A DNA stretch of 62,819 nt, filler included, from Hausera hauseri (lineage: Eukaryota): NCBI GenBank assembly GCA_046269625.1. It is 12 parts of 12 records of this genome, joined end to end, with 100 filler letters (N's around TTAATTAATTAA, not from the genome) between each part and the next. Parts side by side here need not be neighbours in the genome. Positions count along the whole stretch, not along the records: positions 18,960 to 24,853 come from JBJURY010172417.1; 11 more parts are not named here. One strand, written 5' to 3'. Shown in pieces: positions 13,022-43,378 of the stretch. The position numbers were made by a program, and so were the translations under genes. Numbering within the stretch: position 1 is the first letter of the stretch; each line of letters starts with the position of its first letter. The notes under the pieces are model-generated. The model was not told where the DNA came from. It did no database searches and saw nothing but the letters and a program-made list of their open reading frames with translations.

Positions 13022-13121
13022 NNNNNNNNNNNNNNNNNNNNNNNNNNNNNNNNNNNNNNNNNNNNTTAATTAATTAANNNNNNNNNNNNNNNNNNNNNNN
13101 NNNNNNNNNNNNNNNNNNNNN

Positions 13122-14427: not shown

Positions 14428-14430
14428 CCG

Positions 14431-15069: not shown

Positions 15070-15554
15070 TACTGATTGCCCAGCACCAATAATGCCAAGA
15101 CAAAATCACCGGCGGCTAATTGATTAGTCGCATTGGTTGCAGCATCTTTTAGATAGAGTGCCGAGCCATCTGCGGATACCCGCCAAGCAATGGAAGTCAC
15201 CTGAGCCGCTGCTGCAATATAGAAATTATCTATAACACGGTTCCAACCTGTTCCGGGATTGGGCGGGGCACCGGCACCACCACTCCCAGGACGATAGACT
15301 TCAAACGTTAAGACATCCTTGATAATGGCTCCTGAAAATTGTGCAATCAAACAACCCGCCGTGGGTGTGTTGGCGGGTTGCGCATTATCTTGGGTCTGCC
15401 CTGCGTTATTGCCAATATCTCCTGCGGTTAAATTGCGACGAATAACCTTCAAGACATAATCTTCACCGCTGGTAATCGGTAAAGTATTGGCAATGGTCAT
15501 TGCCCCTTGCGGATTAATCGTATTGGTAACAGGTGCATATCGTAAAATAGCCAT
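15069..15554 (-). CDS. Phage hypothetical structural protein (possible capsid decoration protein)
   Basis: Directly downstream of the major capsid gene; strong RBS (AAAGGAGA) before ATG at 15554; rich in Ala, Gly, Asn and Thr. Confidence 0.55.
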   Translation of the reverse strand: MAILRYAPVTNTINPQGAMTIANTLPITSGEDYVLKVIRRNLTAGDIGNNAGQTQDNAQPANTPTAGCLIAQFSGAIIKDVLTFEVYRPGSGGAGAPPNPGTGWNRVIDNFYIAAAAQVTSIAWRVSADGSALYLKDAATNATNQLAAGDFVLALLVLGNQ

Positions 15555-15570
15555 GTTCTTTTCTCCTTTA

Positions 15571-16746
15571 TTAAGCAATTCGAGCAAATGAATGGATCAC
15601 GCCATGCTCGATTTGAGTTAAACCGGCTGGCAACATGTTCGCGGCTTGATAGCTTGGAAACTGGATCATTTTTTGACCACGAATTTCACAAGCTGCCATG
15701 GCAACGTTAAAACCAAAATCACGTCGTTCCATTTCAAACCAAACCCGCTCACCCCAAGCAATTCCAAACGCTTGTGCGCCTAATAATAAGTTCCAAGCGG
15801 ATTGAAAGCCGCCGCTAGTGATACGATAACGGGCTAATTCAGGTGTTTCATAAACCAGAATACCATCCACCATCCCGCGATAACGGGCACCACTGATCCC
15901 TTCGGGTTGATCGCCATTTTGAATCACGCCTCGATACATAAATTGACTCCAATCTGGATCTTTACAGAGCGATAAATAAGAATTGGGATCTATCAAATAC
16001 ACATACAGCTCTTCTGGGAAGCCTCGTTTGGTTTTAAGCTCAATCGGCCTAATTTTAGCTTCAGCTTCAAAGACATCAGGTGCGTTACCAGAAATAGCGT
16101 ATGTCTTTAACATGCGAATATGGCTAACATTTAAGCCGTTTTGATTATAAGCCGTGCCCGCGTTCATGGCGGCGACAATGGCATTAATGTTGGCGGCATT
16201 ATTCCATTGTGCACGGGTTGCGATCGGCCCGTTTAAAGCACCACACGCTAATGCCCTATCATAAGAGGGGATCTGTGCTGCGGGATTATAAGCACCACCC
16301 ACATTGGGTAACCCACAGGCATAGTCTAAAACAGCCTTGATCAAATTGCGTTTTTGCGCATTTAAAAGCAAAGGGCGCAACATATCAAAGATGTCGACTG
16401 GCGTTAACTTGCGTACAAACGGCACCCCTTGCAAGCCATCGACAAAGCGTAAGGGATTAATTTGGATCTGATCGTAATAAACCGTCGTGGTTTGCTCAGC
16501 ACCCGCGGCTTGATCATAACCCACGATTGGATTGGTATAGTTAAGCTCTTTTCTAAAAGGTACCCGAATAGAGCTGCCATCACCATTCAGCATTTCAAAT
16601 ACTTGAATGGCATCCTCTGGAGAAGTACCAATAAAAACACTTAATGGCGTTAATCCTAGATATTCTTCAAAATATTTTTCACGGACATCAATAGGGATCA
16701 GGCCTGAGTCAAAGGCATTAGGAACTGCGGCGGTATAATTAGACAT
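15571..16746 (-). CDS. Phage major capsid protein (N4-gp56/DUF4043-like)
   Basis: About 390 aa; ATG at 16746 with RBS AAAGGGTGA. Motifs GMVDGILVYE, NLLLGAQAFGIAWG, ERRDFG and EHGVIHSF resemble this family. Follows a scaffold-like gene. Confidence 0.8.
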   Translation of the reverse strand: MSNYTAAVPNAFDSGLIPIDVREKYFEEYLGLTPLSVFIGTSPEDAIQVFEMLNGDGSSIRVPFRKELNYTNPIVGYDQAAGAEQTTTVYYDQIQINPLRFVDGLQGVPFVRKLTPVDIFDMLRPLLLNAQKRNLIKAVLDYACGLPNVGGAYNPAAQIPSYDRALACGALNGPIATRAQWNNAANINAIVAAMNAGTAYNQNGLNVSHIRMLKTYAISGNAPDVFEAEAKIRPIELKTKRGFPEELYVYLIDPNSYLSLCKDPDWSQFMYRGVIQNGDQPEGISGARYRGMVDGILVYETPELARYRITSGGFQSAWNLLLGAQAFGIAWGERVWFEMERRDFGFNVAMAACEIRGQKMIQFPSYQAANMLPAGLTQIEHGVIHSFARIA

Positions 16747-16944
16747 AGCGTCACCCTTTTCAATCAAAAAGTTAAAACAACGTAACCCACTGCTGAGTTA
16801 CAGGCTTTTGTTTTGACTTTCCTGAAAGGGGACGAGCATGCTTGTTGGTAAGAGGGTAGCGGTTAGCAGGCCTCTTTAAAACAAATGTTTCTTCCTGTCA
16901 TCAGAAAGTTGAAGCTTAAGATCAGGCCGAAGTTCGGGTAGATC

Positions 16945-17886
16945 TTAACTTCCGTATAACTTACCTGACTTGGCTCTCTCAAAAATACCTTTTAGAGAAG
17001 TTTCTTTTTGCTCCGGGGCATCTTTGCTGCCGCCAGTCGGTAATGTATACGATTTTGAAGGAATATATCCTTCTTCTTGCTGCTGTTGATATTTTAAAAT
17101 TTGTTTCTCTTGTTTGTCAATAGTTTTTTGCAAGGACTCTATTTCTTGTTGGTATTTTTTCTTAAAATTTCTTAAGCTGCCGGCCTCTTCAATATCGCCA
17201 TAGACTTCTTCATAATAGTTTTGTCCTAAGGCAATCATCTTTTTAGCTAATTTTATCGGCTCTTTTTCCAGTTTTGCCAATTCGGTCATTGCTTCTTCAA
17301 TTTCTTGGCGGCTAGCATCTTCTAAGAACAAATCAAACGCTCTAATTTTTTTATCTAACAATGGATCGAGATCTAAAAGCCCTTCTTCTATTGATTGCCG
17401 AATTTTATGAATGCCTTCATTGCCAATTCTAAATAATTTTTGCAGCGGGTTATCTTCTTCAATTTCAGCGGCGAGCGCATCATGGGCGGCATCATTTAAT
17501 AAAACACTTGCTTCTGCTTCATTTAAAATACCATCCTCCATATATTTGTTAATTTTCTTTGGAGTGTTTTTTAATTTTTGCGCAATTTCATTATAGGCCT
17601 TTTGCGTGCCTTTAGTGCGTTTTTTTAAAGTCTCTAGTTCAGCCTGTAATTCATTGTCTGATATAGCGTCTTTGGCAACGGCATCTTTTGAGTGTTTTTT
17701 AATTGAATTGCCTTTTTCCTCCTCAACCGCTTCATGGGGAGCGGCTTGCTTTAATTTCTCAGTGGCTTGAGTATTTTGTATCTTTTTAGCCTCTGTTCCG
17801 GTTTCAACGCCTTTAGATTTTTTTAAAATGTTGGCAATCGGTTGTAAGGATGGTTCGGCATCATTAGGATTTGTTTCTGGTTGCAC
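16945..17886 (-). CDS. Putative phage capsid scaffolding protein
   Basis: 313 aa, highly charged and coiled-coil-like, between portal region and major capsid gene. Confidence 0.6.
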   Translation of the reverse strand: MQPETNPNDAEPSLQPIANILKKSKGVETGTEAKKIQNTQATEKLKQAAPHEAVEEEKGNSIKKHSKDAVAKDAISDNELQAELETLKKRTKGTQKAYNEIAQKLKNTPKKINKYMEDGILNEAEASVLLNDAAHDALAAEIEEDNPLQKLFRIGNEGIHKIRQSIEEGLLDLDPLLDKKIRAFDLFLEDASRQEIEEAMTELAKLEKEPIKLAKKMIALGQNYYEEVYGDIEEAGSLRNFKKKYQQEIESLQKTIDKQEKQILKYQQQQEEGYIPSKSYTLPTGGSKDAPEQKETSLKGIFERAKSGKLYGS

Positions 17887-18226
17887 TTTGCACCTCCAAA
17901 AGTTGTCGATAAGAAACTAAGCAATCAAATAAGTTGCCTGAAAAATCTGAACTGGCATAAAGTAAATCACCCGGCTCTAAATAAAGAACACTGCCTTTTA
18001 AAATGTTTCTAATTTGATAAGGATCGACTTGTCCTTGTTTTAAAAAATAATAGTTTTTGCCATCTTCACGTAAGATGGTCATATCAACTAAAATGGGTTG
18101 ACTAATGGTGTTGGTAATTTGCACTTCATCGATAATACAACCATTTTGCGAGCCAAATACTAACGTCGGTGTGCTATTCACTTCAGAGGTGCTATACAAT
18201 TTAAAATTGACTTGCATGTTTGACAT
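17864..18226 (-). CDS. Phage hypothetical protein (about 120 aa)
   Basis: Likely ATG at 18226 right after the portal stop (MSNMQVNFK...); contains VLYLEPGDLLYA; overlaps the next gene. Confidence 0.6.
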   Translation of the reverse strand: MSNMQVNFKLYSTSEVNSTPTLVFGSQNGCIIDEVQITNTISQPILVDMTILREDGKNYYFLKQGQVDPYQIRNILKGSVLYLEPGDLLYASSDFSGNLFDCLVSYRQLLEVQSATRNKS

Positions 18227-18227
18227 G

Positions 18228-18859
18228 TTACACCATTCCAGGCGCCGCTGATGGCGCAGGGTTAATCGGATTAACCGGGGTGGTTGCTTCAACCGGCGTG
18301 TTTGTTTGAGCTTGCTCTTGCCCGATGGCTCGCATCTCCTCTGCAATTTCTTTATAATCTCTAATTTTTAACCGCTTAAGCAGACTTTCCGATTTCATAA
18401 TTTCTAATGCATTGGGGTTGGCAAGCAGATTTTGCAATTCCATTTGCTGTTCTTCAAGGCTGCTATCAAAATCGGGGACTTCTTCTACATAAATGGATAA
18501 CGGTAAAGTCCGCACATCATTAAACCTAACCTTTTTACCATCGACTTCTCTCACCATATTGAGTAATATGACTTCTGTTTCTTCGCCAGTCAGTATTTGC
18601 GATTCTATAAATTCATCACCACTGCCTTGCAGCAGTTGCAAAAACATTCTGCCTTCCCGTTTTTTCATCATCTTTAAATTATCAAAAGCAAATACTTGAT
18701 TGCGCACCGAATTGATTTGTCGGTTCTGAATGGCTACACCACTGGTCGCATTGGTTTCTTTACCTAAAGCATCATTATAAATGCCTGACACTTGCTGTAA
18801 TTCATTATCCGTGCGCTCTAACATCTCAAATTGTCCCGGAGCAAGCGCCATATTACTTT
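18228..18859 (-). CDS. Phage portal protein C-terminal part (P22 gp1-like), 5' truncated
   Basis: ELQQVSGIYNDALGKETNATSGVAIQNRQ...FDNL matches the P22-type portal pattern. Confidence 0.85.
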
Positions 18860-19542
18860 NNNNNNNNNNNNNNNNNNNNNNNNNNNNNNNNNNNNNNNNN
18901 NNNTTAATTAATTAANNNNNNNNNNNNNNNNNNNNNNNNNNNNNNNNNNNNNNNNNNNNATCATTGACGATGGAAATTACTAAAATTATGACGAGCCCAT
19001 CATTCATCAATCCGTGATGGACCTTGTCCACCGGCTTGACTACATCACGTAGTCTCCTCACAACTGACGAAAGCTCATCAGAATTCCCATCTTCTCTATC
19101 AAGAATCAAATACCAATTCTATCGAATGGATGCAGATATAACGCAGATAATCTACTGATCACTTTCTTTAATATTCTGATAATATTTATTTAGCCTTTCT
19201 GCAGATGGCCAGACGCGACGTACAGACGAAACAACCTCAACCAAATACTACGTGGCGTCGAGGACGTCTCCGCCAACTACTTGCACGGTGTCGAGTCCAA
19301 CTCCACCCGCACACAACATCGAGATCACCTCTGTCAACCTATATTTATTAAAAATAACCTTCTTATCTGAAGTTGTTGTTTCTCCGCGTTTTCACCAGTT
19401 GTTTTATCGACTGCATTAGAGTACGTGTATTGTACGGCCTATACAAGGCTTTTGCCCAATGCAGGACCTCTAAACACACCATAGATCAGCAGTCGACGAC
19501 CACGGTATAATTTACTCGCCCAGAATACCTAAGCCAAACGAA

Positions 19543-22500
19543 ATGCAATCGATATTTACTCGACGCCATGAAGCACGAAATCTTCGAACCTCAGATGTTC
19601 AACCGACGGTTAGAAACCAGAGAGTGGAAAACGCGAATGAAACAAATAATGCACTATACCCAATTGGGGAGTTAAGACAGATGGTCGAGCAGCCAGTTGA
19701 GACCACTGAAGTTCCCATTAACGGTTACAAGGTGTCTACTATACGACAACCCAAGATAGCACCAAGCTATTACGGTACAGTGATCGAAGGCAGGCCCTTT
19801 GCAAAGATTGAATTGGAAGATTGGGAGGTTTATGCACTAATAGATACAGGATCTGAAATATAACTGATAAAATATGATTCGATACCACAATTCCTACGAA
19901 AACAATTATATCCACCTCCTACGACGGACCCAGGAAGCATTGGAGCTTTCGGACAATCATCAAAAAGTAAATTTCGTTGGAAACCAGAAATTCACATAAT
20001 GGGACAAATTTTTCATCACGAATTTTCAGTAATGGAGCAACTAACGGATGATGTAGTGTTAGGGTGTGACCTATTGAGGCAACTACCTAATATAGCAATC
20101 GATTTCAATGCAGGTAAACTGATAGAACTTGGCCCAATAAAAGGAGTTAAAACCACTAAGGACAGAAAATTTGTAGAAGTGTGGATTCCAGTGGACAAAA
20201 CCATACCACCCAGAATAGAAATCCTAATATATGCTCAGATACGTCAGGACGACGATCAGCCAGTATATTTTGAACCAAAGGTATCGCTTGATCCTAACTT
20301 TGTACTCAGCAATGTTTTGACAAGAGTATCAACTGGCCGTGTGCCAATCAGGATAGCCAATAACGCACCAATTTCGATTAAATTGTATGCCAATACCACT
20401 TTGGGACACACGTATAGAATATCATCCATCACTGTCGAAGAAAAACCATATAAAGGCGCCGAATTTCCGCCCCACGTGGAAACTAAGTTTTCACTAGAAT
20501 CATATTGCCGATTCTACGAATTACTTTGTAGCTATAGCTCGATTATCGCAAGAGATGAAGAAGATATTGGACGAGCCAAAACCTTAAGGCTTACAATTCC
20601 GATCAAGAAAAAGCTTGGATCTAACGACAAAATAGACTTAGAGGATAAAAAGATGCCGAAATGGTATCCCCCTCCACACTCGCTAAGACCAGAAATAACC
20701 AAGGAAGTTGAACGAATGTTAAAGGCCGACATAATTAGACCTAGCTATAGATCTAGGTATTTACTTATGTTAATGGTTAAGAAGAAGGGTACCAGTAAGC
20801 ATCGATTTTGTATCGACTATCGAGCATTAAATACGCTTATGATTAAAGATTCCTTCCCGTTACCCTCAGTAAAGGAAGCTTTGGATAGACCTTCTGGAGC
20901 TAAATGGTTTACTACGCTCGATTTGCAATCTGAATATTGGAAAGTAGAAATAGAAAAAGAAGACCGTTACAAAACGGCGTTTAAGACTCACGAAGGTATA
21001 TACGAATTTAATGTTATGCCATTTGGGATAACTACCGGAGCAGCCATCTTCACTCGGATGATGAACAAAATGCTAATGGGACTAGAACACACGTTCGCCT
21101 ATTTGGACGATGTCATGATTGCATCGAAAACGGAAGAGGATCATATAAAGGATATTAAAGGTACGCTCATGAGATTAGAGCAAGCTGGATTAAATCTGCA
21201 TCCTAAAAAGTGTAAATGGGCTCAAAATGCTGTGTCGTACCTTGGACATATAGTTGGGGAAGGAGGATCAAATCCGGATAAGTCGTTGTTAAGTAAAATA
21301 TCGGATAGCATGGAGCCTAAAAACCAAAATAATTCAGGCATTGGCTAGGATTATGTGGACATTACGCCACTTACGTACCAGAAAACGCAAAGATAAATGC
21401 ACCCTTGTATTGTTTATTAAAGATAGGGATTAAATGGAAGTGGACCGATGTTGAACAAAAGACCTTTGATGAAATGAAAAAAATTCTAATTAGCGAACCT
21501 GTTTTAAGATATCCCCATTTCAACCTGTCGTTCATAATCAAAAAAGACGCCAGTAAGGAAGGTATCGAATATGAACTGGCCCAAAAACGAGAATACGAAG
21601 AGTTGGAACACCCAATTGCATACGGGGGACGTTTTCTGAAGAAAGCAGAAAAGAACTATTCTGTTACGAAACTAGAAACATTAGCGGTAAAAGAAGCACT
21701 GCGACATTTCAATGTATATGTCTATGGACAAAAGATCATAATCGTTACGGATCATGACGCAGTTACGACTTTGAAAGGTAAAGCGAATAATTCAACTTGT
21801 AGGCTCAACAGATGGATTGAGGAGATATAGCGATATAATGTCGAGTTCCAATACAAGCCCAGAAGTAAACATGTTGACGCTGATGCATTATCGAGACTTA
21901 AAACGAAAACAAGCACAGTTGCAGTAATGAGAAAAGCTCACCTTGAAGACTTAGTAGAGAGACAACGGATTCTCACGCTGGATAAGGCACTAAAAATTGC
22001 TGTTGAACAAAGAAAAGATCGGGTTATACAACAAATTATCGAGTCCATAGAGACCAACGTAACACCAAAGGGTCATCAGTTACGGAAACACTTATGACGA
22101 TATGGTCACAAATACTGCGTAGTTGGAGATTTTGACCGCGAAAATGTGTTATATTACGAACGAAAGGAACGGAAACTAGTTGTCATACCGAAAGGACTAC
22201 GAACGGAAGTACTCATGGACGAACATGATTCTTATTTGGCTGAACATATGTCGTGGAAAAAGACATTAGAAAGGATTTAAAAAAATAATATTGGCCAAGT
22301 ATCTATATCGACGTGAAAAATTGAATAAATGATTGCAAAGTATGTGCAACCAAGCAAAAAAAGTAAAGAATTACGTCGCCGAGCTCAAGTCTATCGATGT
22401 GCCCGATAGACCGATGCAAGCAATGTCTATGGATATTGTAGGACCCTTACCTACAACCCACAAAAATAACAAATACATTTTGACGTATGTAGATCGATTG

Positions 22501-23230
22501 ACCCATTTCGTCGAACTTATAGCACTATTAGACCAAAAGGCCGAGATCTTAGCAGAAGCGGTAGTCCGGAAGATTATTTGCAGATACGGGCCACCCGAAC
22601 AAATACTGACAGACCGAGAAAGAAACTTCAAGAGTGAACTGTTTGAGAAAATTACCAAGATTTTTGAGATCGAAAGATTAACTACTACAGCTTACCACCC
22701 CCAATTTAATGGAATGATCGAGAGAATGAAGGCGACCGTTATACGAATTCTATCGACAGTAGTCTAGAAGGATCAGAAAGATTGGGACGAGTTCTTAGAA
22801 AGCACAAAGTTTGACATTAATACAACTCTACATACTGCGGCAGGATTCACTCCATTTTTTTATGATGTACGGTAGAGAAGCTGTACTGCCTACTAATTTG
22901 AGATTGATTCCATATACAACTAGAACGGAAGATTTAGAGCAGAATTTTGTCGAAGTAGTACAATCAAGATTGCACAGGTGTTGGGAAATAGCCAAAGAGT
23001 TATCTAAAGAATACCAGGAACAATTTAAGAAACAGTATGATAAGAAGGCTAAACCACATAAACTAGAACCCGGAAATTGGGTTTACGTACACTACCCAGT
23101 GGCGAAGAAAGGCACATCTCTTAAATTTACTAGAACCGGTAGAGTACCGTATGAAGTCATTAAGATTAAACCGACCACAGTCTAAATAAATAAAAACGGC
23201 AAGGAAGAGGTTGTTTCGATTCAGAGAACA
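19543..23230 (+). mobile_element. Ty3/gypsy pol (protease, RT, RNase H, integrase) with scattered stops
   Basis: ALIDTGSEI; VVLGCDLL; RFCIDYRALN; VMPFG; YLDDVMI; HPIAYGGR...NYSVTKLETLA; MDIVGPLP; TAYHPQFNG; GRVPYEV. Confidence 0.95.
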
Positions 23231-24541
23231 GTGAAGACGGAAATAAGACCGGATAAACGCTATAATTTGCGTTCAAATAAGGTTAATAAAGAAAAGAAAA
23301 CATCGTCAATAGTGACCAGACCAATATCGTATGTGCAGATAATCCTGGCCTTAACGTTAATCGCTTCATATATATCAACTGCGAAATCGATCGCTCAGAG
23401 CGAAAAACAAAGTGATATCCAAAACTTAGAGTCACTTAGAGTACGCGATATGGATTGGAGAAAGCCATGTGCATGGTTTGAATGAAGCAAACCTATTCGA
23501 AGCTACGTAAAATTTCAAATAATATTTGTGACCAAGCACACGATGAAAATATGTGATTTTCCGTATGGAGTTCATAGGAGATGTTGTAGTTTGGACTTTG
23601 GACAAACCTACGGATACAGTTTTCAAATGTTTTATTCTTATAAATTCGGGACGAGATAATTCGAAGCACCGATCCAGTTAAAAGGCTCTTAGACTACAAT
23701 ATTATCGGAATTCGTAAGGACGTAAAGAACCAGTGCATTCGAATTGAGACCAAAAGCAGACTACCAGAAGACAAGGAAATCTCTGTCCAATTTACGCCAC
23801 TGAACACTTCAATTCCTAAACCAGGATACTGTTCTTTGGCCAAACGACGTCCTATTGTGTGTTGTGCACTGCTATTAGGACAAGAATATTGGTTGCAATT
23901 CGATCTGTACGATATATATCCCGGAGAACCAAGTATGTATTTAAGAGGATATCGCCCAAAGGATGAAATATGGAAGCTTCCGCTCCCAACCACTACGGAA
24001 AAACCGTCCACGACTCCGAGTACAACTCGAATTACTACGATTGTCACTTCGGACAAAATGCCGGGAAACATACCGGTTAAGATTTTAGCAAAGTGATAGA
24101 ATTTTATTTTACGCTGAAAAAACGTTGAATCGAGACGTCAAAATTGAGTGTCGCACCCTGTACACCAACCAAGTTTTGATCCTGAAAAAGAATAGTCTGG
24201 AGGCCGTATGCAGGTCATTACGGCCTCAAAATGAGTATATAGTCAGAATTACCGCGAAAGGTAAGAACCCCAAAACTTTTACAGTACGAACTCTTGGCAA
24301 TAAAGTTGAAGTAATGCTATATAAAGATATCAGCACTCAAAATGTATTTACCACGGAAAGTTCTACTGAGCCGAGTAATTTACCGATAATAGCTATATTT
24401 AGTTTGTCACTTTTCGTTCTGGTCATAACAACAGCGATGATTTTTCTAGTTTCCAAAATTTGTAGTAAGCGCGGTAAAAATCGAGAGGGAGATAAACGGG
24501 AAAAAGGGCACCGAGATGGACCTTATGATAGCATAACCTGA
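23231..24541 (+). pseudogene. Integrase-fused type I membrane protein (signal-like segment, Cys-rich FN3-like repeats, Thr-rich stalk, TM, basic tail)
   Basis: Same frame as the integrase C-terminus. Contains ISYVQIILALTLIASYISTAKS, CC motifs, PTTTEKPSTTPSTT, CRSLRPQNEYIVRITA and TM LPIIAIFSLSLFVLVITTAMIFLV. Homologous to 40300-41824. Confidence 0.75.
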
Positions 24542-24642
24542 CAACTACAGATCGGGTTATCCTATCATTAGACAGAGAAAATGTTTTGTTTCAAAACGAT
24601 GATCTGTCTTAGGATTAATCTTTATTTTTATTTCAGCCAAGT

Positions 24643-24853
24643 ATGACCGAGAAGGCGAAGATTTCATCAGTCAGTTCCGATTTCGATATCGATAATTTCT
24701 TGCAGCAGCACATCACTGTCCTGAAGCCATTATCTAAAAACCTGTACCGACAAATTGGAGAAAATTTGAAAAGCCAGAATTATGTAGAATTCAAACATGA
24801 GAGTAAAATACCGAACGGACTAAAATGGGGTTTAGAAGAGAATCGACTGGTCC
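24643..24853 (+). CDS. Conserved orphan ORF of the gypsy element, after a splice-acceptor-like site; truncated by contig end
   Basis: Pyrimidine tract + CAG at 24620-24636. IDNFLQQHITVLKPLSKNLYRQI aligns with IDDFLQ-YGTVLIPKSKGIYRRI at 40129 (minus). Confidence 0.65.
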
Positions 24854-24953: not shown

Positions 24954-26015
24954 CATGAGTATTTACGTGGTGTTGCCGTGCAAAATTTGTCCGACGACTT
25001 GTCCGAACAATTTAGCCAGTGAATACGTCGTAGATTGGAACAATCCTTTAGATTTATCTGCTGAAAATGGAGGTTGCACTGACGGAATTTAACTTTTCCT
25101 ACGTGCCGTTGACATTGAAAGTTAGTATGAAAATAACGTACAAAAAGACTGTTACTGAAACCAAAACACGTTCTTGTCCTCTGACACTTACTAACAATAA
25201 AATAACTTGTGTAGAATCGGCCATATGCACGACCAAAGCAGGTTCCGGTTCACACAGAAAAATCGGTGTTTATGTTTTAGAGGAAAACTTAGTTTTTATT
25301 GCAAATTTTTAACTTACTGTTACCTTTGAGTCTTCTGAGATGGCGCAGAAATTTGCATTCAAAAATACAGAGTAAAAAGGCAATCATATTAAAAGTGAAT
25401 ATATTGTTCCTCCAAGATTAACTCTGATATATTACCATACAACGGTGAAATTTACCTATACAACAGGAAGGGTGTCAACATCATTCGTCTCTATTGGAGA
25501 CACTGTCTATTGTGAATCTCTAGCACAACTATGTCAACACTTTTTCAATCAAAAGTACAAGGCGATATTTAAAGGTTTTTGAGTCAGATGCAAATGTGTA
25601 CGTTAAGTTTGAACTGGCTAAGGATATTGTCCACATTTCATTGGACAAAGCTTTGGCCATGGTATTACGTTTTGAAAAACTGTGGTTTGAGACATCATAT
25701 ACGAAGACACGAGCAGCGGTGACAAATGTTGCAACACTCAAACCCAAATTGAAAACGGGACTAAGTCAAATGTACATTTACTTGAATGTCACCGTACCGG
25801 TACTCCATGCAATTTATCCGGAAATCAGCAGATATACTGCCTGCGACAATGTTACTGTAAAGCTCAATAATCCAATGTACCTACACGTGATATCTACATC
25901 TATAAACAATGTTGAATTGAATATCCGATGTGATTCGTGCTACCTTATTGAATTATCGTGCGGTACCACAACCAGTCTAACTCTTCATTTCTGTCGAATC
26001 CAACAACATGATTGA
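24954..26015 (+). pseudogene. Maverick/adintovirus minor capsid (penton-like) protein, frameshifted
   Basis: N-terminus YVVLPCK...PNNLASEYVVDWNNPLDLS / MEVALTEF and C-terminus MYIY...NPMYLHV...INNVELNIR...LTLHF match the Maverick penton pattern. Confidence 0.8.
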
Positions 26016-26319
26016 TTCCGGAATCGTATCCATTTACAGTAAACCGCAGCAGGGCGGTGAACTGGCGTATTTCGTCAGTAAACAGTACGGCTCTGTATGG
26101 TTGCGTACATTGGCACGTTTAGCATTTCCGGTGTTGAAGCGTGTTAGTGCCGTGGCAGCAAAAACCGCAAAGGATGTACTATATGAAAACAAGTCGATTT
26201 TACCATCACTGAAGGAACACGCATTGTGGGAAATAAAAAGCGTTACACCGGGAGTCGTTGAATCAGTCAAAGGAACAATTCGCTGGCAGTGGCTTGATAA
26301 GAAAACGTGGACGTGGTAG
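26008..26319 (+). CDS. Small Maverick/adintovirus core or membrane-active protein
   Basis: QQGG...KQYGSVWLRTLARLAFPVLKRV...KTAKDVL amphipathic pattern; lies between penton and major capsid genes. Confidence 0.65.
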   Translation: MIDSGIVSIYSKPQQGGELAYFVSKQYGSVWLRTLARLAFPVLKRVSAVAAKTAKDVLYENKSILPSLKEHALWEIKSVTPGVVESVKGTIRWQWLDKKTWTW

Positions 26320-26374
26320 ATCAGTTAGCTTTTCAACTATAAACAAAAGTCGTCGTCGTACGATTTTCGATTGA

Positions 26375-27580
26375 TTGACTGACAGACAGACAGACAAGTG
26401 GCACCTGCAAAATCCGAATTGTGAATATTTGACAAAGCGGCGCTACAAGTCGTTATTTACAATGTGGCATTTGAAGAAATCTGCCAAGAAATCGGACAAT
26501 AAATACATGGATTTGAACGATACTCTACTCTATTTAAAAGTCATTGATAAAAAGGACGCGTCAACGGTTTGCACTGCAACAGACACTGTCACACCGGCCA
26601 ATTACCTTTTCCTCACACTGTTTCAGGAGGTTTTATTGACTCTGAACAGCGTCAAATCGAAGGCAGTACCAGTCTATACAGTATCAAAGCACTCATTGAA
26701 ATGGCTCTAAATTATAGTACTGACACGAAAACGACTTATTTGACGAAAACCATCGGATATGATGCCACAGCGGCAAACCGTCAGGCATGGGTGACAAAAT
26801 CAAAAGCGCTTACAATGTGTGGACCGCTGTACTTTGACTTTTTTGATCAGCCGAAATACCTACTGCCCGGTGTTAAAGCCATAATTTGGCTCAAACGCAG
26901 CGACAATGTCTTTTGTTTGAAAACCCTTTGAGAATCTCAAACCCATACTGAAAATTACTGAGACACGATTATACGTACGTCGAATAAAGGTAGAACCGCC
27001 TGTGCTCGTGGGACATCAATTGGGCTTTGAAACACAAAATGCCTGTTACCCGATACAACGCGTAGAACTCGTCTTTTACACCACACTCAAAGGTTCAGCA
27101 ACGTTTTACAAGGACGCACTGTTTGGCGACATGCGATTGCCGAAATTTTTACTCGTCACATTTCAAACGACTGTTCAACAAACGGACAGTTATACCGCCG
27201 ATTCGGAAACGTTTACCCATAGCAATGTGAATTACATCAGTTTGGGTCGGAATGCGAATTTTGTTGAGACGTACAAACAAGATTTTGAGTCTAATGATTA
27301 CGTTTGCACATATATGTAATCTATTGTGTTTAACATGGGTTTGCTCAACAAAAACATTAACAACTGCATATTGATGGATCTGTTCAAGTCCACCTATCCA
27401 TTTTTTACCTTCGTGTTGGCTCCGGATTATGACCTTGAACAGATTCAACTACCTTAGCAGGGAAACCTACGACTGGAGGTTCACTTTGCCAAAGCGTTGG
27501 AGCAATTTACAGTGATGTACATTTACGGTAAATTTGATGCCGAGGTTGAAATAACGAAAAACGGAACCGTCGTTGTATAA
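26375..27580 (+). pseudogene. Maverick/adintovirus double jelly-roll major capsid (hexon-like) protein, frameshifted
   Basis: YMDLNDTLLYLKV; ANYLFLTLF; LIEMALNYSTDTK; FFDQPKYLLPGV; YPIQRVE; LPKFLLV; GNLRLEVHFAKAL; YGKFDAEVEITKNG. Confidence 0.9.
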
Positions 27581-29059: not shown

Positions 29060-29574
29060 AATATTATTTGGTTCCTGACCAACACGATTACTAGTCGGAT
29101 CCAATAAATCTCGCACTTCTTCTTTATACACTTCAATAAATAAAGAGGTAACTGTGTACTTTAGTTTGTCTTTATTTTCCGAAATAATTTAAAAATTTAC
29201 TTCTACAGCTCTTGGGACAATTCCTTTCTCTTCATCTAATACTTCTTCTTGATTAAAAGTTCCCATTGTGTACGTTTTTCCAGAACCCGTTTGCCCGTAA
29301 GTGAATATTGTAGAATTATAACCTTCAAATATGTTATCCACCAATTCTTTATCACAAGTTTTAAGATTTCTTTCTGGATAGATTTCGGACTAAACACACC
29401 ATCAAGTGTAAATTCACGATCCTTCCCAACGATTATTTGTTTGAGATCTTGTAAAATTTTAATGCAAGATTCTTCGCCATTCAACTTTTCTTTGGGCAAT
29501 AAAGGTCGAACCCGTGTGACAACCCTGACGTTTGTTTCAGCGACCGATGGATCAATCATGCAATTATAAAACAA
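29060..29574 (-). pseudogene. Kinesin-4 (KIF7/KIF27-like) motor domain N-terminal fragment, frameshifted
   Basis: VRVVTRVRPLLPKEK...IIVGKDREFTLDGVF; other frames give [23 protein letters not shown] (P-loop), GIVPRAV and FIEVYKEEVRDLLD. Confidence 0.85.
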
Positions 29575-29867
29575 TAGTTTTGTAAAGACTGTCTAACAAC
29601 CTTCCAACCATGGCTATTCTCGCTCTCCCAGTTTTCCGAACCCTGCCAGAGGTCATGTATTCATTATTTTGCACTCTGTTTTTATATCACGCACACTCAT
29701 TCAACCATTTTAACCTTTAATAACCCGATTTTTAACAACCAGTACACACAGTGCAACCAACCATGAANNNNNNNNNNNNNNNNNNNNNNNNNNNNNNNNN
29801 NNNNNNNNNNNTTAATTAATTAANNNNNNNNNNNNNNNNNNNNNNNNNNNNNNNNNNNNNNNNNNNN

Positions 29868-31033
29868 CCTATATGAGGCACAGATTACATACAGTTCTAT
29901 TATGATCACAAACATTTTTTAAGTCACTTCGCATCAAAGTCAACGAAAACTATCTTCAATACATAATATAATCTTGATGCATGTGCTTCGAAATATGGTG
30001 CTTCCAATTATGCTGCTGGATCTGGTGCAGCAGCTGCGAAGCATATTAGAGAATTGAAACTCGCGGCCGCATCAAATGCAGAGGCTTCAAAAAAAGTCAA
30101 AGACAGCGGCCACATAAACAATGCTGATGGCTAAGATTCCAATAGGGCCTTCAAGACTAGAATAATCAGAATGGACGCAAAAGTCGCACGAAAAGCTGAT
30201 ACGTGAACCCGGGGTGAGCCAATATAATAAGAGCGGATGGATTCTGGCAACCATCAAGAGATTGATTGTGCATGTGCACAAGTATTCTCCAATGCGGGGT
30301 AGTTCCTATATTCAACTTCCAGAATGGATCGTAAAGAAAAGGGCTTTCATCAATGTCCTGAATAATGAAAAGTGTTTCATGTATGCCCTTCTATCAAAAC
30401 TCGTACGGGATCAACATAATCCTTCACGAGTTTGGCAATATAGCGATATGCAGCACAACTATGACTTCCAATGTATCAAGTTCCAACATCCAGAGATGGA
30501 ATTAAAAAATTCGGAAGACTGAACAATATATCAATCAATACCTTGAGATTGAATGAGGAGGACAAATTCTATCCCCTACAAATATGTGATGCTGAACTGG
30601 AAAACCATTGGGATCTGCTCCTACTAGATGATGTGAAAAGAGGTATTTCATCTGGATAAAGAACTTTAAACGTCTAGTTAAATCCAAATTTACGAAACAT
30701 AAGGAAATAATCGAAATATGCAAACGATGCTTGCCCAATTTCAGCCTCAATTTAGTTGTGGAGAAGCTGAATGAGCACAAGATGTACAGAAACAACAATT
30801 ATTGTATCAGGCCAGATTTTCCTAAGGATGACTACATTGAATTCAATAAGTTCGAGAAAAACCTTAAGGTCCTAATAGTTATCTATTGCGACTTTGAGGA
30901 TATTCTGCATCCATTTCAGAGTTTCAGTCCTAATCCCCAACATAGCCGCACAACGGCATACCAATATCATGAGCTCTAATCATATTGCATGCATGCCGAA
31001 GGACTGGACAGTGAACTATATCTATTCAGGGTC
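29868..31033 (+). pseudogene. Maverick protein-primed DNA polymerase B, N-terminal remnant
   Basis: SGWIL...YSPMRGSSYIQLPEWIVKKRAFINVLNNEKCFMYALLS; VIYCDFEDIL (Exo I); YQYHEL. Confidence 0.85.
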
Positions 31034-31199
31034 ATATGTTACCTACATTCATTATCTATATTACTAGCATATTACATGTATAGTTCCTGCAGATTACCCA
31101 TATATCCTGCCTGTATTTCATACCAAATACATTCTATCTATATAATTCCTATATCACATACATACTCCCTGTGTATTACCTGCATATTACTCACATTAG

Positions 31200-31590
31200 C
31201 TAAATATTACTTGTATTTTACACACATACACAGATATATATATATATATATGATCTATACATTTTCCCAAGTTAGTTGCATTTTACATGCAGAGACAAGC
31301 ACGCAGACATATATCGTAATCATTCATTTGTCAGGTTACTTACATTTTACATGCACAGACAAGTACAAACACAAGCATACAAACATATATCTGAGCTATA
31401 CCTTTTCTCAGGTTAGTTGAACTTTACAAGCACAGACATGCATATGACACCATATGTCTTAATCATTCATTTCTCAAGTTACTCGCATTTTACCCACCCA
31501 CACACAAACATGCACACACGACTTATATTTGAGCCATTTCTTTCTCAAGTTACACCATTTTACCCACACACACATATATATACATTATAA
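31200..31590 (+). repeat. Degenerate CA/TA-rich minisatellite (about 65-75 bp units)
   Basis: Recurring TTT(C)TCA(A/G)GTTA...CATTTTAC(A/C)...CACAGACA blocks, about five to six copies. Confidence 0.7.
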
Positions 31591-31799
31591 AAGTGCTTAG
31601 CCTTATGCCGAAGTAGTATTGTTATGAAATAAATGTGTTATGAAATTAGTTGGCCTTATGTACATAGTATTTACTTAGTTTTATTTGGCCTTCTCCTACA
31701 TCCCACATTACTTGATCAAGAAGACAACACGATATTTCTATACAACATTTATTGATCAAAGAATAACAAAGAATAACAATATGTACATAGTTACAATAA

Positions 31800-34700
31800 T
31801 TCCACATGCCCGTGAGGTAGTGTGTGGATTCCATTGCTGAGGATCTGCCTCTTGCCGTCCATCCAATCTAGGCTTTTTTTCTGTAAGGTAACAATTTGGA
31901 TGTTATGATCCCTAGATTGGATCCTTTTCATTTCCGACAATATGTAAGTCTGTTCCTACAGAACTGTCATATAGTCTTGAAAATTGGTCTTCTTGGCCAA
32001 TGTAGTCCTTTGAACCCATATTGCCAGATTCCTTATTTAACTACATATGTCTAGGGAAAAAATCGATATTATTGCCCTATTCACCTCGGCTTTGAATTTC
32101 CCAAGGACCTTTTTGATGGCAATTGAATAAATGGGATGATCCTTCGGATAGTCCGAAGTATCCATATCCACTGGGCAAAGTCCTTATAAATGTACTCTGT
32201 ATGGGTCTCGGGATTGTTGAATTGCAAGGGCGTTTTCAGCATATGAATGCTGACCATGTTCTCCGCATATATGGTGCTGCTGTGAAAATTGCTGCTTGGC
32301 AATGTGCTTCTTTGCCCGCTTGCACTCAGAGACCAGTTGTTACGTAGCTTGAATTGAACCTTCTCAAAGTCGTTTTTAGCATTGGTCCGTACCTTCCTAT
32401 TAAGATCTATGTGCGGCTGCAGCCAGTTGAACTAGCTGAACTGCAGGGTCCGATGGATCTTAGTAATACGTTGTCTATTTCTGACTGCCTGCTGGAGATT
32501 TATGTAATGGACTACATACCTCTCCCTACTATCCAGATGGCAGAGCAGCTTTCTATGCTTTCCATGTGGTGGAGGCTTGAACTCAGGGAGGAAAGGCAGC
32601 AGTTGATACATTGCATGGATAGAATCCGGATATTCCATATCCATCTCCAGTATGTATGCCGTATCTCCTGTGGGATCCAGGTCCAGCGCAGTGATGTTTT
32701 TAGGATGCTCAAACCACTTGAATTTATCATATGGCAACGGGGCGCTCATTGCCCATCCATACAAGTTGTTGGCATCTAGGTATGATATCTATGAGGATTC
32801 CTTGGATGGATCATACTGGGCCACATATTGTTGTTATCCTCGCAATACCGATGAATGGCCTGGCATATTCCGCCTCTAATGCCTCTCTCAATAATAAGGA
32901 TCATGTCGTAATCCTTTATGATCTGGAGCCTAATACCCGTATAGCGCTGCATAACAGCCCATCTCATCACTGGAGCCGTAAAGAATTAGCTCGATCCAGT
33001 GCATGACTCTTCATCGTAACATCCCTGAAACTCTCGAAGACATCCATCAGAAGCAGACCGTCCGTCTTGAGGTGTATGTCGCTGTATTCCCCTAATGTTC
33101 GGCATTGGAATGCATACCAGACGTTATGGGCATGCTGGTGGTCCTCATCACTTATATGGAAATCTGAGAGGATATTGTAAAAGTCCTTCGTGGCCGGCAA
33201 TGAGGTCTTATCCAGAGTTTCCCACGAAGTTATATAGTCATAGGGAAACATGCCTTTCTTTTTGACGGGGTCAAATGTAGTGGAAAAGAACGGCTTTGTC
33301 TCCTTGAGTTCTTCTGCAGGGAGATTCTTCATTAAACTGTCAAGTGAAGACGACATGAGACTAAAACTCTCTGTGAAGTGAAGCCTGGTTTCCCAACATG
33401 CTTGATAAATATGATGTATTTTTCCTCACTGTTGGGGATCACATCAATGTTTCCTTTACTGGTGCTCAGTTCTCGAACAATGAAATGGAAATCTAAGCCA
33501 CTGAGATTATGGAACACTGCAGGCACATATGTACATGTTTTGCAACGTAGATTTAGTTGTAGCACGACGCGCCCCGATATTTGCCTGTAAAATTGTAATG
33601 ATTCCTAGTTTTATGATTCTCCTTAGTGAATGATTTGGAGCACAAGTGACACGCTGTTGTCTTGCGCCATTCTTTTTCTTGCTACTTCAACATGTTCATT
33701 GTATCCTTATGCTGCTGCTGCTGATATCTGCAATACTATGAGCCATATCATCAAGTTGTTTCATGAAATGAGCTACTGTGCCTGGACCCTGAATAGATAT
33801 AGTTCACTGTCCAGTCCTTCGGCATTCATGCAATATGATTAGAGCTCATGATATTGGTATGCCGTTGTGCGGCTATGTTGGTGATTAGGACTGAAACTCT
33901 GAACTGGATGCAGAATATCCTCAAAGTCGCAATAGATAACTATTAGGACCTTGAGCTTCTTCTCGAACTCCTTGAATTCAATGTAGTCATTCCTAGGAAA
34001 ATCTGGCCTAATACAATAATTGTTGTTTCTGTACATATTGTGCTCTTTCAGCTTCAATACAGCTACATCGCCGCTGAAATAGGAAAAGAATTGTTTACAT
34101 GTTTCTATTTGTCCATGATGTTTCGTAATTTTTGACCACACTAGCCGCTCGAAGTCTTTAATCCAAACATAATGTTTCTTTTATCCGTCGTCTAGTAGGA
34201 GCAGATCGCTATGATCTTCCAATTTAGTATCACATATCTGTAAGGGATAGAATTTGTGCACCTCATTTAATTCCAAGGTATTGATTGATATATTGTTGAG
34301 TCTTCCGAATTTGTCAATTTCATCTATGAATGGTTAGAACTTGATACATTCGAAGTCATAGTTCTGCTGCACATCCTTATATAGCCAAACACATATTGTC
34401 ATGATTATGGACATTGACATGCCTTTTTATTAGTTATTCAACCAGAGAACTAAATATATGAACTGTTCCGCATAGGCGAATACTTGTGCACAGGCACAAT
34501 CAATCTCTTTATGGTTGCCAGAGTCCGTCCGCTCTTCTTACCTTGGCTCTGCCCGGGTTCACAGATCAGCTTCTAGTGCGACTTTGCATCCATTCTGCCA
34601 TGTTGATATTTTCCAATGTGGGTCTATTTTTAGTCTTGAAGGCCATATTGGAATTTTCGCCATCAACATTGATATACGTGGACTCCAGTTTCTTACTTTC

Positions 34701-34802
34701 TTTAAGGGCTTTGAGATCAGCCATGCTGTCCTGAAGAATTCCCTCTGTCTCCTCCTTTTTGTATGAGAGGAAATCTTGGATGGTTGTTGTAGCAGTTGCC
34801 AT
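31800..34802 (-). pseudogene. Maverick protein-primed DNA polymerase B, near full length but decayed
   Basis: VIYCDFED; endonuclease-VII-like CHLC...TGKYRGAS; VFHNLSGLDFHFI; KKGMFPYDY; LGEYSDIHLKTDGLLL; GIRGGI; DANNLYGWAMS; KKVLGKFKAE; C-terminal GIHTLPHGH. The YxDTDS motif appears deleted. Confidence 0.92.
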
Positions 34803-39459: not shown

Positions 39460-40129
39460 ATCTCTGTTCCATTTCTCTCTCTGACAGATATCTCGATGGG
39501 TATTCCATATCCATCATCTCCTCTGCCACAATTTATCGCCATAATTCTTATATTACGTCCATCTTGGACTAATCTATACGCTTGCTTATGTTCGTCTTTT
39601 TCTTCTTCTGTTGGGGTCTGTTCAAATTCTAGAACCGGCAAACCTAAGTTGCAGTTCTCTTTATAGGTCACTTCGAACATCAACTTGACAGGTAACGCTG
39701 CTACTCTAAATTCTAATCCGTAGTCAATGGTTTCTAGACCTCGTCCGCTTATTTTAAACGTACTGAATCTATATTGGCGCCCTTCGTTTCCGTCCCATTG
39801 TTGATTTTTAATTCTGTAATAAACTTCCCCGTCTGCCAAGTGTATGAATACATTTTCTATTCTGATCATTTTGCTCTGGATTAATTCTTTCAGGTCATAT
39901 GACTTAGCCTGGTTATTATCTCTCATTGCATATAGCGAAATCATGCGATTATCGTCGGTATTAACTTTAAGATCATTGGATATGTTGGTTACTTTTCGGT
40001 ACACTATGTGTGTTTCGGTCCATAATGCATCTTTAATTCTTCGGTATATTCCTTTTGATTTGGGAATGAGGACTGTTCCGTATCTTGCAGGAAATCGTCG
40101 ATCCTAGGTCGGCTGCTCGTACTTACCAT
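39460..40129 (-). pseudogene. Conserved orphan ORF of the gypsy element (one frameshift), truncated by contig end
   Basis: ATG at 40129 follows TTTTCTTTCAG; homologous to 24643-24853; continues as the 198-aa ORF ending at the linker. Confidence 0.65.
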
Positions 40130-40299
40130 TCTGAAAGAAAATACAAAATAAGGGCAATCCTAAAACAAAGTATTGTTCGAAATTTGAACCAATTCTTTGT
40201 TTAATGATGAAATAACCCGATTTGTCGTTGTCAGAATATTTCATCATTAATTTCATTCTGTGGTACCATTACCCTTACTTCCCTCTCATAGATTTTGGG

Positions 40300-41824
40300 G
40301 CGTTTATTGTATCAATTTTTGGTAATCAGTCGACAAAACGCATTTAAGATTATGAGAGCGAACGCTGATGTTCCAATAATTGATATTAACGACAAAGTTG
40401 TCGATTCAGTTAAACTTTTATTTAAATCGTAGTTGTCAACTCATCCTCTGTTCCATACTCATTCAATGATTTCATTGAGACAATTTCGTTTAAGGTTCGT
40501 ACCGTGAACGTTCTGCTTTGTTTATTCTCTGCGTCTACTTGTATAATATAATCCATTTCAGGCTTTAAGTGAGTACATTTGATTCTCTCGCTACATTTTG
40601 TCAATATTACTTTTTGTTTATTATATAATGTTCGGCAACTTATTTTCACGTCGTAATTCAGTGCCTTTTCTACTACAAAGGTTATTTCACGCTGAGGTGT
40701 CCAGTGTTTTACCGGAATTATTTCTAGTTCTTTTTGGGCTGATTTATTTATTGAAATATTTCTGATCAGTGACGGAATAGTGGGCTTTATTTTCGCATTC
40801 GTTGTCATATTAAATAAATTTGACTTAACTGGATTTCTGAGTCGGTAGCTTCCTAAATAAATACTCGACTGGTTGATTCTAATTTCGTATAAATCTAGCT
40901 GAATTTTATATTCATATTTCTGTGGTAACTTGCAACATATTGATGGTTGTTTGACATCGATTTGGCAGTATTGTTGATTATGAGCTTGTATGTTTCCCTT
41001 CAGAAACCGTACTGAGATTACTCGACCGTTTATTAGTCGTCCTTTTGTTTTAACTTGAACACAATTGTTCTTGGGGTTCTCTGAAATACTGGCGATATTT
41101 TCTTCCAGCATTCGCTTTACTGGATCGATGGACTGGAGCATTTCGTTAGGTTTTATCCCATGATGCTTATTCCAAGCAGGAATAACTAATTGAAATTGTG
41201 GTTTTACTTCATGGATTTCAGATAATTTTGATGAATATAGCAGATAGGTAAGGTTGTAAGTATGACCAATTTCCGTGCTGCAACATTGCGCGCGCTCTCT
41301 ATGCCCGAAATCACAATGCCTTGTTTCTTTTGTCATTATATCATCTAGGTCAATTTGAAATCTTCCAGCATCGTAGTATTTTTTTGTATAATAAATCCAA
41401 CACATGAAGAGTTCGGTGAATAATATTTAATGGTGATTGACTGTAATGACGTGATATCTTTTTGTCTTTGGGTTTCTTCTAATACTGGTTTATTTTCTAT
41501 TTTCTCAATCCCATTCTTCGGCGTTACGTATCCATTCTTAAAGGTGGATTCATCATGCGGCCATTCAGCTTGTGTTTTTGGAATATAGGTGGTGATCAGC
41601 GATAGTGCTACGATTATTTTTACGTATGATATCGGTCTGGTGATAACTGACGAAGTTTTGTTTTCTCGTGGCCTTAGATTGTAATGTTTGGCTGCCCTTA
41701 TATCTGTTTTAACTACTCTTTGGATTGATACGACTTCTTCTTTGCCATTTTTATTGACATAAACCGTAGTTGGTGTTGTACGGATGATTTCATATGGTCC
41801 TTTTCCAGTACGTGTTAATTTCAA
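40300..41824 (-). pseudogene. Integrase C-terminus fused to type I membrane protein, paralog of 23231-24541
   Basis: GKGPYEII...HYNLR...RPISYVKIIVALSLITTYIPKTQA in one ORF; then CDF...QCCS, YCQ...ICCKL, CTHLKPEMDYIIQVDA and TM LSLISIIGTSAFALIILNAF. Confidence 0.75.
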
Positions 41825-43378
41825 GTATGTACCTTTTTTCGCAACTGGGTAATGTATATAAACCCAGTTTTCTTTTCCCAGATCATCAGGTTTAATCTTT
41901 TTTTCATATTATTTTTTTATTTGTTCCTGTTATTCAAGTGATAATATTTTCGCGACTTCCCAACATTTCTGTAATCTTGTCTGTAAAACTTCGGCAAAGA
42001 TTTGCTCTAAATCCTCGAGGTTCTTTTCATACGGCTTCATGCCTAGATTGGTAGGTAAGATTGTCTCTCGTCCATACATCATAAATAATGGTGTAAATCC
42101 TGTTGCTGGATGTGGAGTCGTATTAATCGCGAATTGTGTTCCTTCTAAGAATTCATCCCAATCTTTTTGGTCCTTTGCCACTACTGTTGATAATATCCGA
42201 ATAACTGTTGCGTTCATCCGCTCGACCATTCCATTACATTGGAAATAATACGCGATGGTGGTTAAACGTTCAATTTCAAATATTTTGGTAATCTTTTCGA
42301 ATAATTCGCTTGTGAAGTTCCTTCCTCTATCCGTTAAAATCTGTTCTGGTGGTCCATATCTGCAGATGATTTTTCTTACTACTGCGTCGGCTAAAGTTTC
42401 TGCCTTTTGATCTAATAATGTCACTAGTTCTACGAAATGCGTTAGTCGATCCACACATGTCAAGATATATCTGTTATTTTTGTGAGTTTTAGGCAAGGAT
42501 CCTTCTATATCCATAGACATGGCTTGCACAGGCCTATCTGGTACGTTTATAGGTTTTAGTTCTGCTACGTAGCCTTTTATTTTCTTTTGTTTTGTTGCGC
42601 AGACTTCCCATGCTCCTACCCAATTCTTTACATCAATATAGATGCTTGGCCAGTAATATTTAGTTAATATCCTTTCTAATGTCATCTTCCAAGACATGTG
42701 TCACACTAAATATGAATCATGTTCGGCTATGAGTACTTCGATACGCAATCCTTTTGGAATAACTATTAGTTTTCTCCCTTTTCGCTCGTAATATAGGATA
42801 TTATCTTGTTTTGATGCATGATATTTATATCCGTGTTTCTGTAGATGCTTTTACAGTTGTCGTCCTTTTGGTATTTGGTCGTTTTGTACGAATTCGATAA
42901 TTTGCTGAATAACCGTATCTTTGGCTTACTCAGTTGTAATTCTAATCGTCTTATCCGATATTATAGTCCTTTGTCGTTCAATCAACTGTTCGAGTTGTGG
43001 TTTCTGAATGTGGTGATTGCATTCGTTTTTGTTATTAATCTTGACAGTGCGTCAGCGTTGACGTGTTTGTTGCCTGGTTCATATTGAAATTCAATATTAT
43101 GTCGTGAAATTTCCTCGATTCAGCGATTTATTCTGCATGTCGAGTTGTTAGCTCGTCCTTTCAATGTTGTAACTGCTTTATGATCGGTCACTATGATGAT
43201 TTTTTGTCCTTAGACATAGACATTAAAATGTCATAGTGCCTATTTTACAGCTAATGTTTCTAATTCAGTAACTGAATAATTCTTTTCTGCTTTCTTTAAT
43301 GAGCGTCCTCCATAGGCTATCGGGTGTTCTAATTCTTCGTCTTCGCTTTTTTGAGGTAATTCGTATCCTATGCCGGGT
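41825..43378 (-). mobile_element. Ty3/gypsy RNase H-integrase, same family as 19543-23230
   Basis: GIGYELPQK...HPIAYGGR; KYYWPSIYIDVKNW; VDRLTHFVEL; YGPPEQILTDRGRNF; MMYGRE. Confidence 0.93.

Follow-up and report, generated by a model that had tools for sequence, protein, structure and literature searches.

A Ty3/gypsy element of Hausera hauseri with a fibronectin-III-like membrane protein gene, predicted alternative hairpins at its stop codon and a possible read-through extension into a RING protein

Read-through of stop codons in retroelements is known at gag-pol and, once, at pol-env junctions. In the retrotransposon SIRE1, the env-like gene was reported to be expressed via stop-codon suppression (PMC2829016). 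Among viruses, type II UGA read-through with a 3' stem-loop has been described for alphaviruses and for furo-, tobra- and pecluviruses; their known stems begin 7-12 nt behind the stop, while leakiness is associated with the contexts CAR-YYA and CAR-NBA, published behind UAG and not behind UGA (PMC3159437). A 2026 review of read-through in animal viruses uses the word 'retrotransposon' 0 times in its main text (PMC13517186). Errantiviruses are Ty3/gypsy elements with an env of the F type or the gB type, and both 'fibronectin' and 'splic' have 0 occurrences in the main text of the report describing them (PMC13524379). In bdelloid LTR retrotransposons, an additional ORF3 was found to encode a catalytically intact DEDDy exonuclease (PMC5408684).

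The window, i.e. the whole stretch of DNA analysed here (62,819 nucleotides from assembly GCA_046269625.1), is composed of 12 unrelated contigs with N spacers between them. The contig at 18960-24853 (+) carries a Ty3/gypsy pol, and the closest solved reverse transcriptase to it is that of Ty3 (E 1e-39); by its order PR-RT-RNase H-integrase and its Ty3-like reverse transcriptase, the element is a Ty3/gypsy LTR retrotransposon. The contig at 39460-45858 (-) contains a copy of a second subfamily, present from the integrase onward, with 70% identity to the plus copy over 1.8 kb. Both copies are broken by stops and frameshifts and are cut by the contig ends inside the downstream ORF (at 24853 and 39460); they would be dead relics of the read-through design proposed below. 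The coordinates are collected in Table 1. A different gypsy family, located at 43375-45858 (-), adjoins the second copy at about 43374 and is probably a nested insertion; its 3' end is repeated at 50091-50427, within 50091-53826 (-).

Table 1 Features of the two element copies and host gene pieces, in positions of the window
Feature	Position	Strand	Evidence
Ty3/gypsy pol (PR-RT-RNase H-integrase), disrupted by stops and frameshifts	19474..23308	+	RVT_1 E 1.6e-35; ORF map
Hydrophobic, signal-peptide-like stretch sharing its frame with the integrase C-terminus	23309..23365	+	hydropathy 1.7 over 19 aa; also in minus copy
Membrane-protein ORF, split in two by a frameshift near 24090; short tail behind fibronectin-III-like ectodomain and transmembrane helix	23644..24538	+	
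Transmembrane helix, plus copy	about 24395-24451	+	TM hydropathy 2.65
Hairpin 1: 20 pairs, UGA atop the 5' arm, 10-nt C/A-rich loop	24522..24571	+	z -6.46; 18/20 paired
UGA stop of membrane ORF and 12-nt spacer, context UGA-CAA-CUA	24539..24553	+	
Hairpin 2, predicted complete once a ribosome masks the stop	24554..24621	+	z -3.0 to -3.4; masked fold
Hairpin 2 core, 7 pairs, 2 two-sided changes	24570-24576 with 24603-24609	+	
Candidate splice acceptor (U-rich tract with TTTCAG), which also encodes the hydrophobic part of the linker	24621..24636	+	
5' part of downstream ORF, cut by contig end, out of frame with UGA	24643..24852	+	
Second-copy integrase	41933..42700	-	rve E 1.8e-12; 84% identity to plus copy
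Second-copy integrase C-terminus, in frame into signal-peptide-like stretch and ectodomain start	41348..41908	-	ORF map, hydropathy
Second-copy membrane ORF: two modelled fibronectin-III-like domains; transmembrane helix in other frame, break near 40415	40330..41426	-	
Hairpin 1, second copy, enclosing UGA 40233-40231	40201..40250	-	z -6.82; 19/20 paired
Hairpin 2, second copy, starting 12 nt behind UGA	40152..40218	-	folding
U-rich tract, TTTCAG (40136-40131), ATG 40129, donor-like GTAAGT (40126-40121)	40121..40151	-	
Second-copy downstream ORF, frameshifted near 40082, cut by contig end	39462..40129	-	
Host gene pieces: collagen IV; presumed DYRK-like kinase start; kinesin motor exon	34903-39359; 47913-48368; 29239-29592	+; -; -	

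The host is an animal, as judged from its collagen IV exons in the window, which are separated by short AT-rich introns, and from a kinesin motor exon; another host piece is, judging by a motif, presumably the start of a DYRK-like kinase. The segments 3319-3847 (-), 25524-27316 (+) and 29868-34802 resemble fragments of the Maverick/Polinton genes for packaging ATPase, capsid and protein-primed polymerase, and they gave no significant Pfam match; 30180-31033 and 33785-34585 are inverted copies. A phage structural module (portal phrog_156, major head phrog_334) occupies its own contig at 13122-18859 (-), and it possibly comes from a bacterial associate of the host. Two ORFs of 298 and 120 codons at 11421-12847 (-), the first with hydrophobic segments, lie behind a gypsy integrase (9104-10909, +) in antisense orientation to it; neither Pfam nor PHROG gave a significant match for them. 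Finally, a Ty3/gypsy element at 54026-58725 (-) encodes a fusion glycoprotein of the Monjiviricetes type (Pfam E 2e-80), which is encoded together with the protease in a single 872-codon frame preceding RT; this order of env before pol has been reported for nematodes, bryozoans and flatworms (PMC13524379).

In the element studied here, the integrase C-terminus is followed in the same frame by a signal-peptide-like stretch; next comes the ectodomain, with a transmembrane helix and a short tail behind it. The hydrophobic stretch may well function as a signal peptide. The membrane ORF of the plus copy is 38-45% identical to that of the minus copy. A partial model of the latter, of low confidence (pLDDT 48) and covering all but the first 100 residues, gave fibronectin type III arrays as best Foldseek matches (E 7e-6) and VIA Z values of 7-8 against fibronectin III folds. 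The Pfam fn3 match of the second-copy ORF (E 0.002) was below the cut-off, and an atlas match to fibronectin III (0.88) is a lead only. Relatives of the membrane ORF were found in 0 of 542 cases in a word-index protein search, and a PDB sequence search gave nothing significant. By these searches and the partial model, the protein looks more like a receptor or adhesion molecule than like an errantiviral fusogen of the F or gB type.

The first-pass annotation of this DNA had drawn attention to a conserved block behind the membrane ORF. The 23-nt motif of this block is indeed present exactly twice in the window, at 24538-24560 (+) and 40234-40212 (-), where 0 were expected from 100 shuffles with up to 3 mismatches allowed. 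With 21 of 23 nt, the block is better conserved than the flanking coding DNA; the best 23-nt windows in the membrane and orphan ORFs have only 15-18 conserved positions. The sequence TGACAACTA is also found out of frame at 40438, and hence the motif alone is weak. The description of the block as non-coding is probably not correct: in both copies it starts at the membrane ORF's own UGA, which is the TGA in CTGACAAC, and its peptide in the UGA frame occurs in two natural proteins, P0001 and P0002. The context of the stop in the minus copy is UGA-CAA-CGA; in both copies there is a C at +4 and a hexamer of the CAR-YYA / CAR-NBA type. The conserved bases of the block are explained by two covarying hairpins around this stop.

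Hairpin 1 was matched by 0 of 200 shuffles in both copies. Across both strands of the window, 18 or more of 20 pairs occur at its two sites alone, and these rank top of 82 and of 96 sliding windows. Of its cells, 92.5% are paired, compared with 25-47.5% when the arms are slid, and 3 two-sided changes separate the copies; for hairpin 2, the values are 96.2% and 27-58%. When the stop and 9 or 12 nt behind it were masked, both copies refolded in such a way that the freed arm extends hairpin 2, with a stem from +13, and the refolded hairpin is thus predicted to begin exactly 12 nt behind the UGA in both copies. The predicted start of this stem, which shows paired changes, falls in the published range of 7-12 nt behind the stop, with covariation from two sequences only; compared with column shuffles of these two sequences, the covariation of hairpins 1 and 2 was not significant (62 and 143 of 500). 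A search of Rfam gave 0 matches. A DNA palindrome acting as a protein site was rejected, because both copies retain a U-G pair and folding is stronger for the sense strand (z -6.5/-6.8, compared with -4.5/-4.7), and a -1 frameshift at the stop was rejected, because no slippery heptamer is visible before the hairpins.

The distance from the UGA to the downstream frame is 104 nt in both copies, which places the downstream ORF out of frame, and a second stop is found at the same linker codon, 11, in both (TAG and TAA). This closed frame, together with the second stop in both window copies, is the main result against read-through. The base of the second stop in the minus copy is paired in hairpin 1. 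Among the three sense frames of the linker, residues are best preserved in that of the UGA (BLOSUM 22, compared with -7 and 8); the third-position excess is small (7/5/10). It was also found that the peptides encoded downstream are homologous, as had been claimed, with 16 of 46 residues identical (E 1e-8); their differences by codon position are 18/18/29 and pN/pS is 0.60. The ATG at 40129 does not open a single ORF of 220 aa, since only 37 codons follow before a stop and the stretch of 206 codons lies in a different frame; the dash in the IDDFLQ-YGTV alignment of the first-pass annotation conceals a frameshift near 40082. What survives of the accessory gene proposed there is a conserved protein-coding region behind the membrane gene, while its start at the ATG behind the AG was not borne out.

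An unfiltered protein search among 1.84 billion representatives yielded 3 matches, two of them true relatives of the downstream protein, namely P0001 (870 aa, 48% identical, E 1e-45) and P0002 (333 aa, 41% identical, E 1e-41). Each forms a single-member ENA cluster, and the two may be paralogues from the same assembly. The third match, P0003, is a bacterial Ig-repeat protein and was dropped as unrelated. Word-index protein searches with the orphan gave relatives in 0 of 154 proteins near its length and 0 of 797 longer ones. Among metagenome contigs a related locus was present in 0 of 107 stretches, and among viral contigs there was no related locus, the one match being of 16 residues (L002); the DNA motif had 0 viral matches and 1 metagenome match (L001), the latter without tblastx similarity to the element.

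Both relatives start inside the linker and continue unbroken into the downstream ORF. From these protein sequences, the downstream frame is open from linker codon about 11-16 onward, as opposed to the closed frame of the window copies. Over their first 30 residues, P0001 and P0002 agree with the plus copy in its UGA frame (16 and 0 of 1000 shuffles, respectively) and in neither of its other frames. The N-terminus of P0001 also matches the UGA frame of the minus copy (3 of 1000). For P0002 this frame gave a chance-level result (266 of 1000), and its match to the minus copy is confined to the part behind that copy's break (19 of 1000). The chance that the stretches of both relatives are stop-free is about 0.05. 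The two differ from each other by one whole codon inside the U-rich tract. Presumably their genes likewise have the UGA, the hairpins and the element context.

The orphan had been considered to be of unknown function. This is still true of the first ~240 residues, the portion in the window, for which no known match was found in Pfam, PHROG, atlas and PDB searches; it does not extend to the 870-aa relative, which has DnaQ-like and RING domains. A single-sequence structure model of the window orphan reached a pLDDT of 30, and PDB sequence searches with it and with P0002 gave nothing significant. Residues about 246-345 of P0001 match the exonuclease domains of DnaQ (E 1.3e-4) and PolC (E 4.5e-4) as well as the PHROG exonuclease phrog_192 (E 1.1e-4); the RNase_T match (E 0.012) was below the cut-off. 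The last 40 codons of the second-copy downstream ORF reach into this domain. In P0001, P0002 and the minus copy, Exo I reads A-x-N and not the catalytic D-x-E, and in Exo II of P0001 the Asp is replaced by M; judging from these residues, the domain is probably a pseudo-nuclease. A C3HC4 RING was identified at residues 747-790 of P0001 (Pfam zf-C3HC4, 30.8 bits against a cut-off of 21, E 2.6e-7), from which ubiquitin ligase activity might be expected. It occurs in one of the two relatives, P0002 ending at 333 aa, and in neither of the truncated window copies.

The state of other copies was assessed in two DNA runs, of which both were aligned as contigs. The internal stop of the plus copy is missing from about 99% of the aligned depth (85,882/86,489 and 1,332/1,350). 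Length variants were found in other copies at the frame breaks of both window copies: at the break in the minus-copy linker, about 60% of the depth in both runs has another length, and the length variant at the plus-copy break is common in one run (74/97) and rare in the other (33/1,444). For the internal stop of the minus copy, no row lacking the stop was seen among the 40 listed of 896. The open frames of the relatives, the 99% of depth and the length variants suggest that the stops and frame breaks of the window copies are lesions. The summed contig depth at the block is 92,641, as against 847-20,026 in neighbouring bins outside 24544-24655, and is higher in both runs, a weak sign that many subfamilies share the block.

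The reading that we favour is programmed read-through, alone or together with splicing, giving a membrane protein with a long cytoplasmic extension; its probability is put at roughly 0.6. Most ribosomes would stop at the UGA, and the product would be the membrane protein with its short tail. A fraction of them would continue through the linker of roughly 35 codons into the downstream ORF, thereby adding a long and probably cytoplasmic extension. In the idle RNA, hairpin 1 would hold the UGA. A ribosome arriving at the stop would open the 5' arm of hairpin 1, the freed 3' arm would re-pair into hairpin 2, and hairpin 2, lying 12 nt behind UGA-CAA where the mRNA enters the ribosome, would stimulate read-through. 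The fusion would then be a ubiquitin ligase that is receptor-like, anchored in the membrane and produced at a set low ratio. Read-through gives no explanation of the U-rich tract. More tentatively, with the odds against it, this Ty3/gypsy family could encode a switchable ubiquitin ligase of its own at the cell surface. To the cytoplasmic tail of a captured, receptor-like fibronectin-III protein, a two-state, ribosome-triggered read-through of the stop would add the pseudo-nuclease and the RING, and the overlapping acceptor could make these domains available in soluble form as well.

The U-rich tract is the starting point for a different explanation, in which the downstream ORF is expressed from RNA spliced at TTTCAG. 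This sequence and the ATG behind it had been placed correctly in the first-pass annotation (24631-24636 and 24643; 40136-40131 and 40129), but the ATG is 7 nt behind the AG in the plus copy and 2 nt behind it in the minus copy. With a pyrimidine tract and YAG, the site has the form of a strong acceptor. T makes up 13 and 14 of the 18 nt before YAG on strands that are only 24-25% T, the site ranks 2/165 and 1/118 among YAG sites by pyrimidine count, its tract is the most U-rich on these A-rich strands in both copies, and it is stronger than the two host collagen acceptors of the window. Splicing could occur in cis, with an AUG brought in from an upstream donor, or in trans to a spliced leader, provided that the host is a flatworm; flatworm leaders have been reported to end in AUG and to be found in LTR and LINE loci (PMC12582326), and the ORF3s of LTR retrotransposons are typically spliced (PMC5408684). 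The hairpins would then regulate access to the branch region, hairpin 1 leaving it open and the full hairpin 2 hiding it, and the same switch that is proposed for read-through could gate splicing, as the full hairpin 2 is predicted to hide the bases just upstream of the tract. The codon phase of the AG is constant in three of four lineages (F-S/R before V-S); P0001, however, has A-K and not S/R at this place. No start codon is conserved behind the acceptor, the Met residues of the relatives being at 1 and 55 and at 1 and 68 and none behind the AG position. Moreover, the pyrimidine tract of an intron needs no frame, yet the relatives are open in the UGA frame upstream of the AG, and a structure centred on the stop with a fixed 12-nt spacer would be left unexplained. 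Splicing on its own is regarded as rather unlikely, and it could coexist with read-through. Apart from the hexamer GTAAGT at 40121-40126 (-), 4 nt behind the AG, neither copy has a GT(A/G)AGT on its sense strand. This hexamer codes for the V-S that both relatives retain, and a micro-exon or donor at this site is possible.

The hairpins might also be a cis-element unrelated to the downstream protein, either a shield against nonsense-mediated decay or an export or packaging signal, with an internal AUG in the linker starting the downstream ORF. Pyrimidine-rich elements behind retroviral stops have been reported to protect against decay, but so do read-through elements themselves (PMC6277124). 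For both relatives the called start falls within the linker, though at different linker codons, and the minus-copy linker is without an ATG. The high depth at the block in both runs would fit such an element, again as a weak sign; as a whole, this explanation is judged improbable. The TG with which the motif begins could suggest that a 3' LTR starts at the block and that the downstream ORF is captured cargo. This reading is very hard to sustain, since the purine tract that should adjoin the TG is absent, hairpin 1 covaries across the supposed boundary and the same ORF follows in all four lineages. A purine run at 39482 followed by TG was considered as a primer tract and rejected, the surrounding sequence coding on in both relatives.

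If read-through holds, a receptor-like membrane protein that is not fusogenic has its tail continued into a RING protein. Such an accessory design would resemble that of complex viruses which remove host surface proteins. A hairpin that encloses the stop and has to be melted before the stimulatory hairpin can form would be a compact and directly testable RNA switch. In the literature searched, with most subscription journals outside its range, no gypsy element with a fibronectin-III protein, a read-through in the env tail or an exonuclease-RING ORF was found. As reconstructed from dead copies and two proteins without context, the architecture appears to be new, and read-through to a gene behind pol has already been reported for SIRE1.

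In comparison with type II viral signals, the locus has the same stop, a C at +4, a spacer of 7-12 nt, a long stem, a variable loop and paired changes, and the spacer of Sindbis is, as reported, likewise 12 nt. It differs from them in the sequence UGA-CAA-CUA/CGA, where a tobamovirus-like hexamer stands behind UGA, in the second, competing hairpin that holds the stop itself, and in its retrotransposon host and membrane-protein upstream gene. The analogy with SIRE1 would be that an LTR retrotransposon gets to a gene 3' of pol through read-through; SIRE1, however, is a plant Ty1/copia element whose stop separates pol from env, whereas here the membrane ORF follows the integrase in frame and the stop is behind the transmembrane helix. 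With errantiviruses the element shares a membrane glycoprotein gene behind pol in a Ty3/gypsy setting, but its product is modelled as fibronectin-III repeats and not as a fusion protein. The bdelloid ORF3 is similar in that it, too, is an additional 3' ORF of a metazoan element of the Ty3/gypsy type and has a DnaQ-like fold. The bdelloid ORF3s keep their catalytic residues, are RNase D-like and are separate ORFs; in the protein described here, the first acidic residues are missing, the best match is of the DnaQ/PolC epsilon type, and a RING follows.
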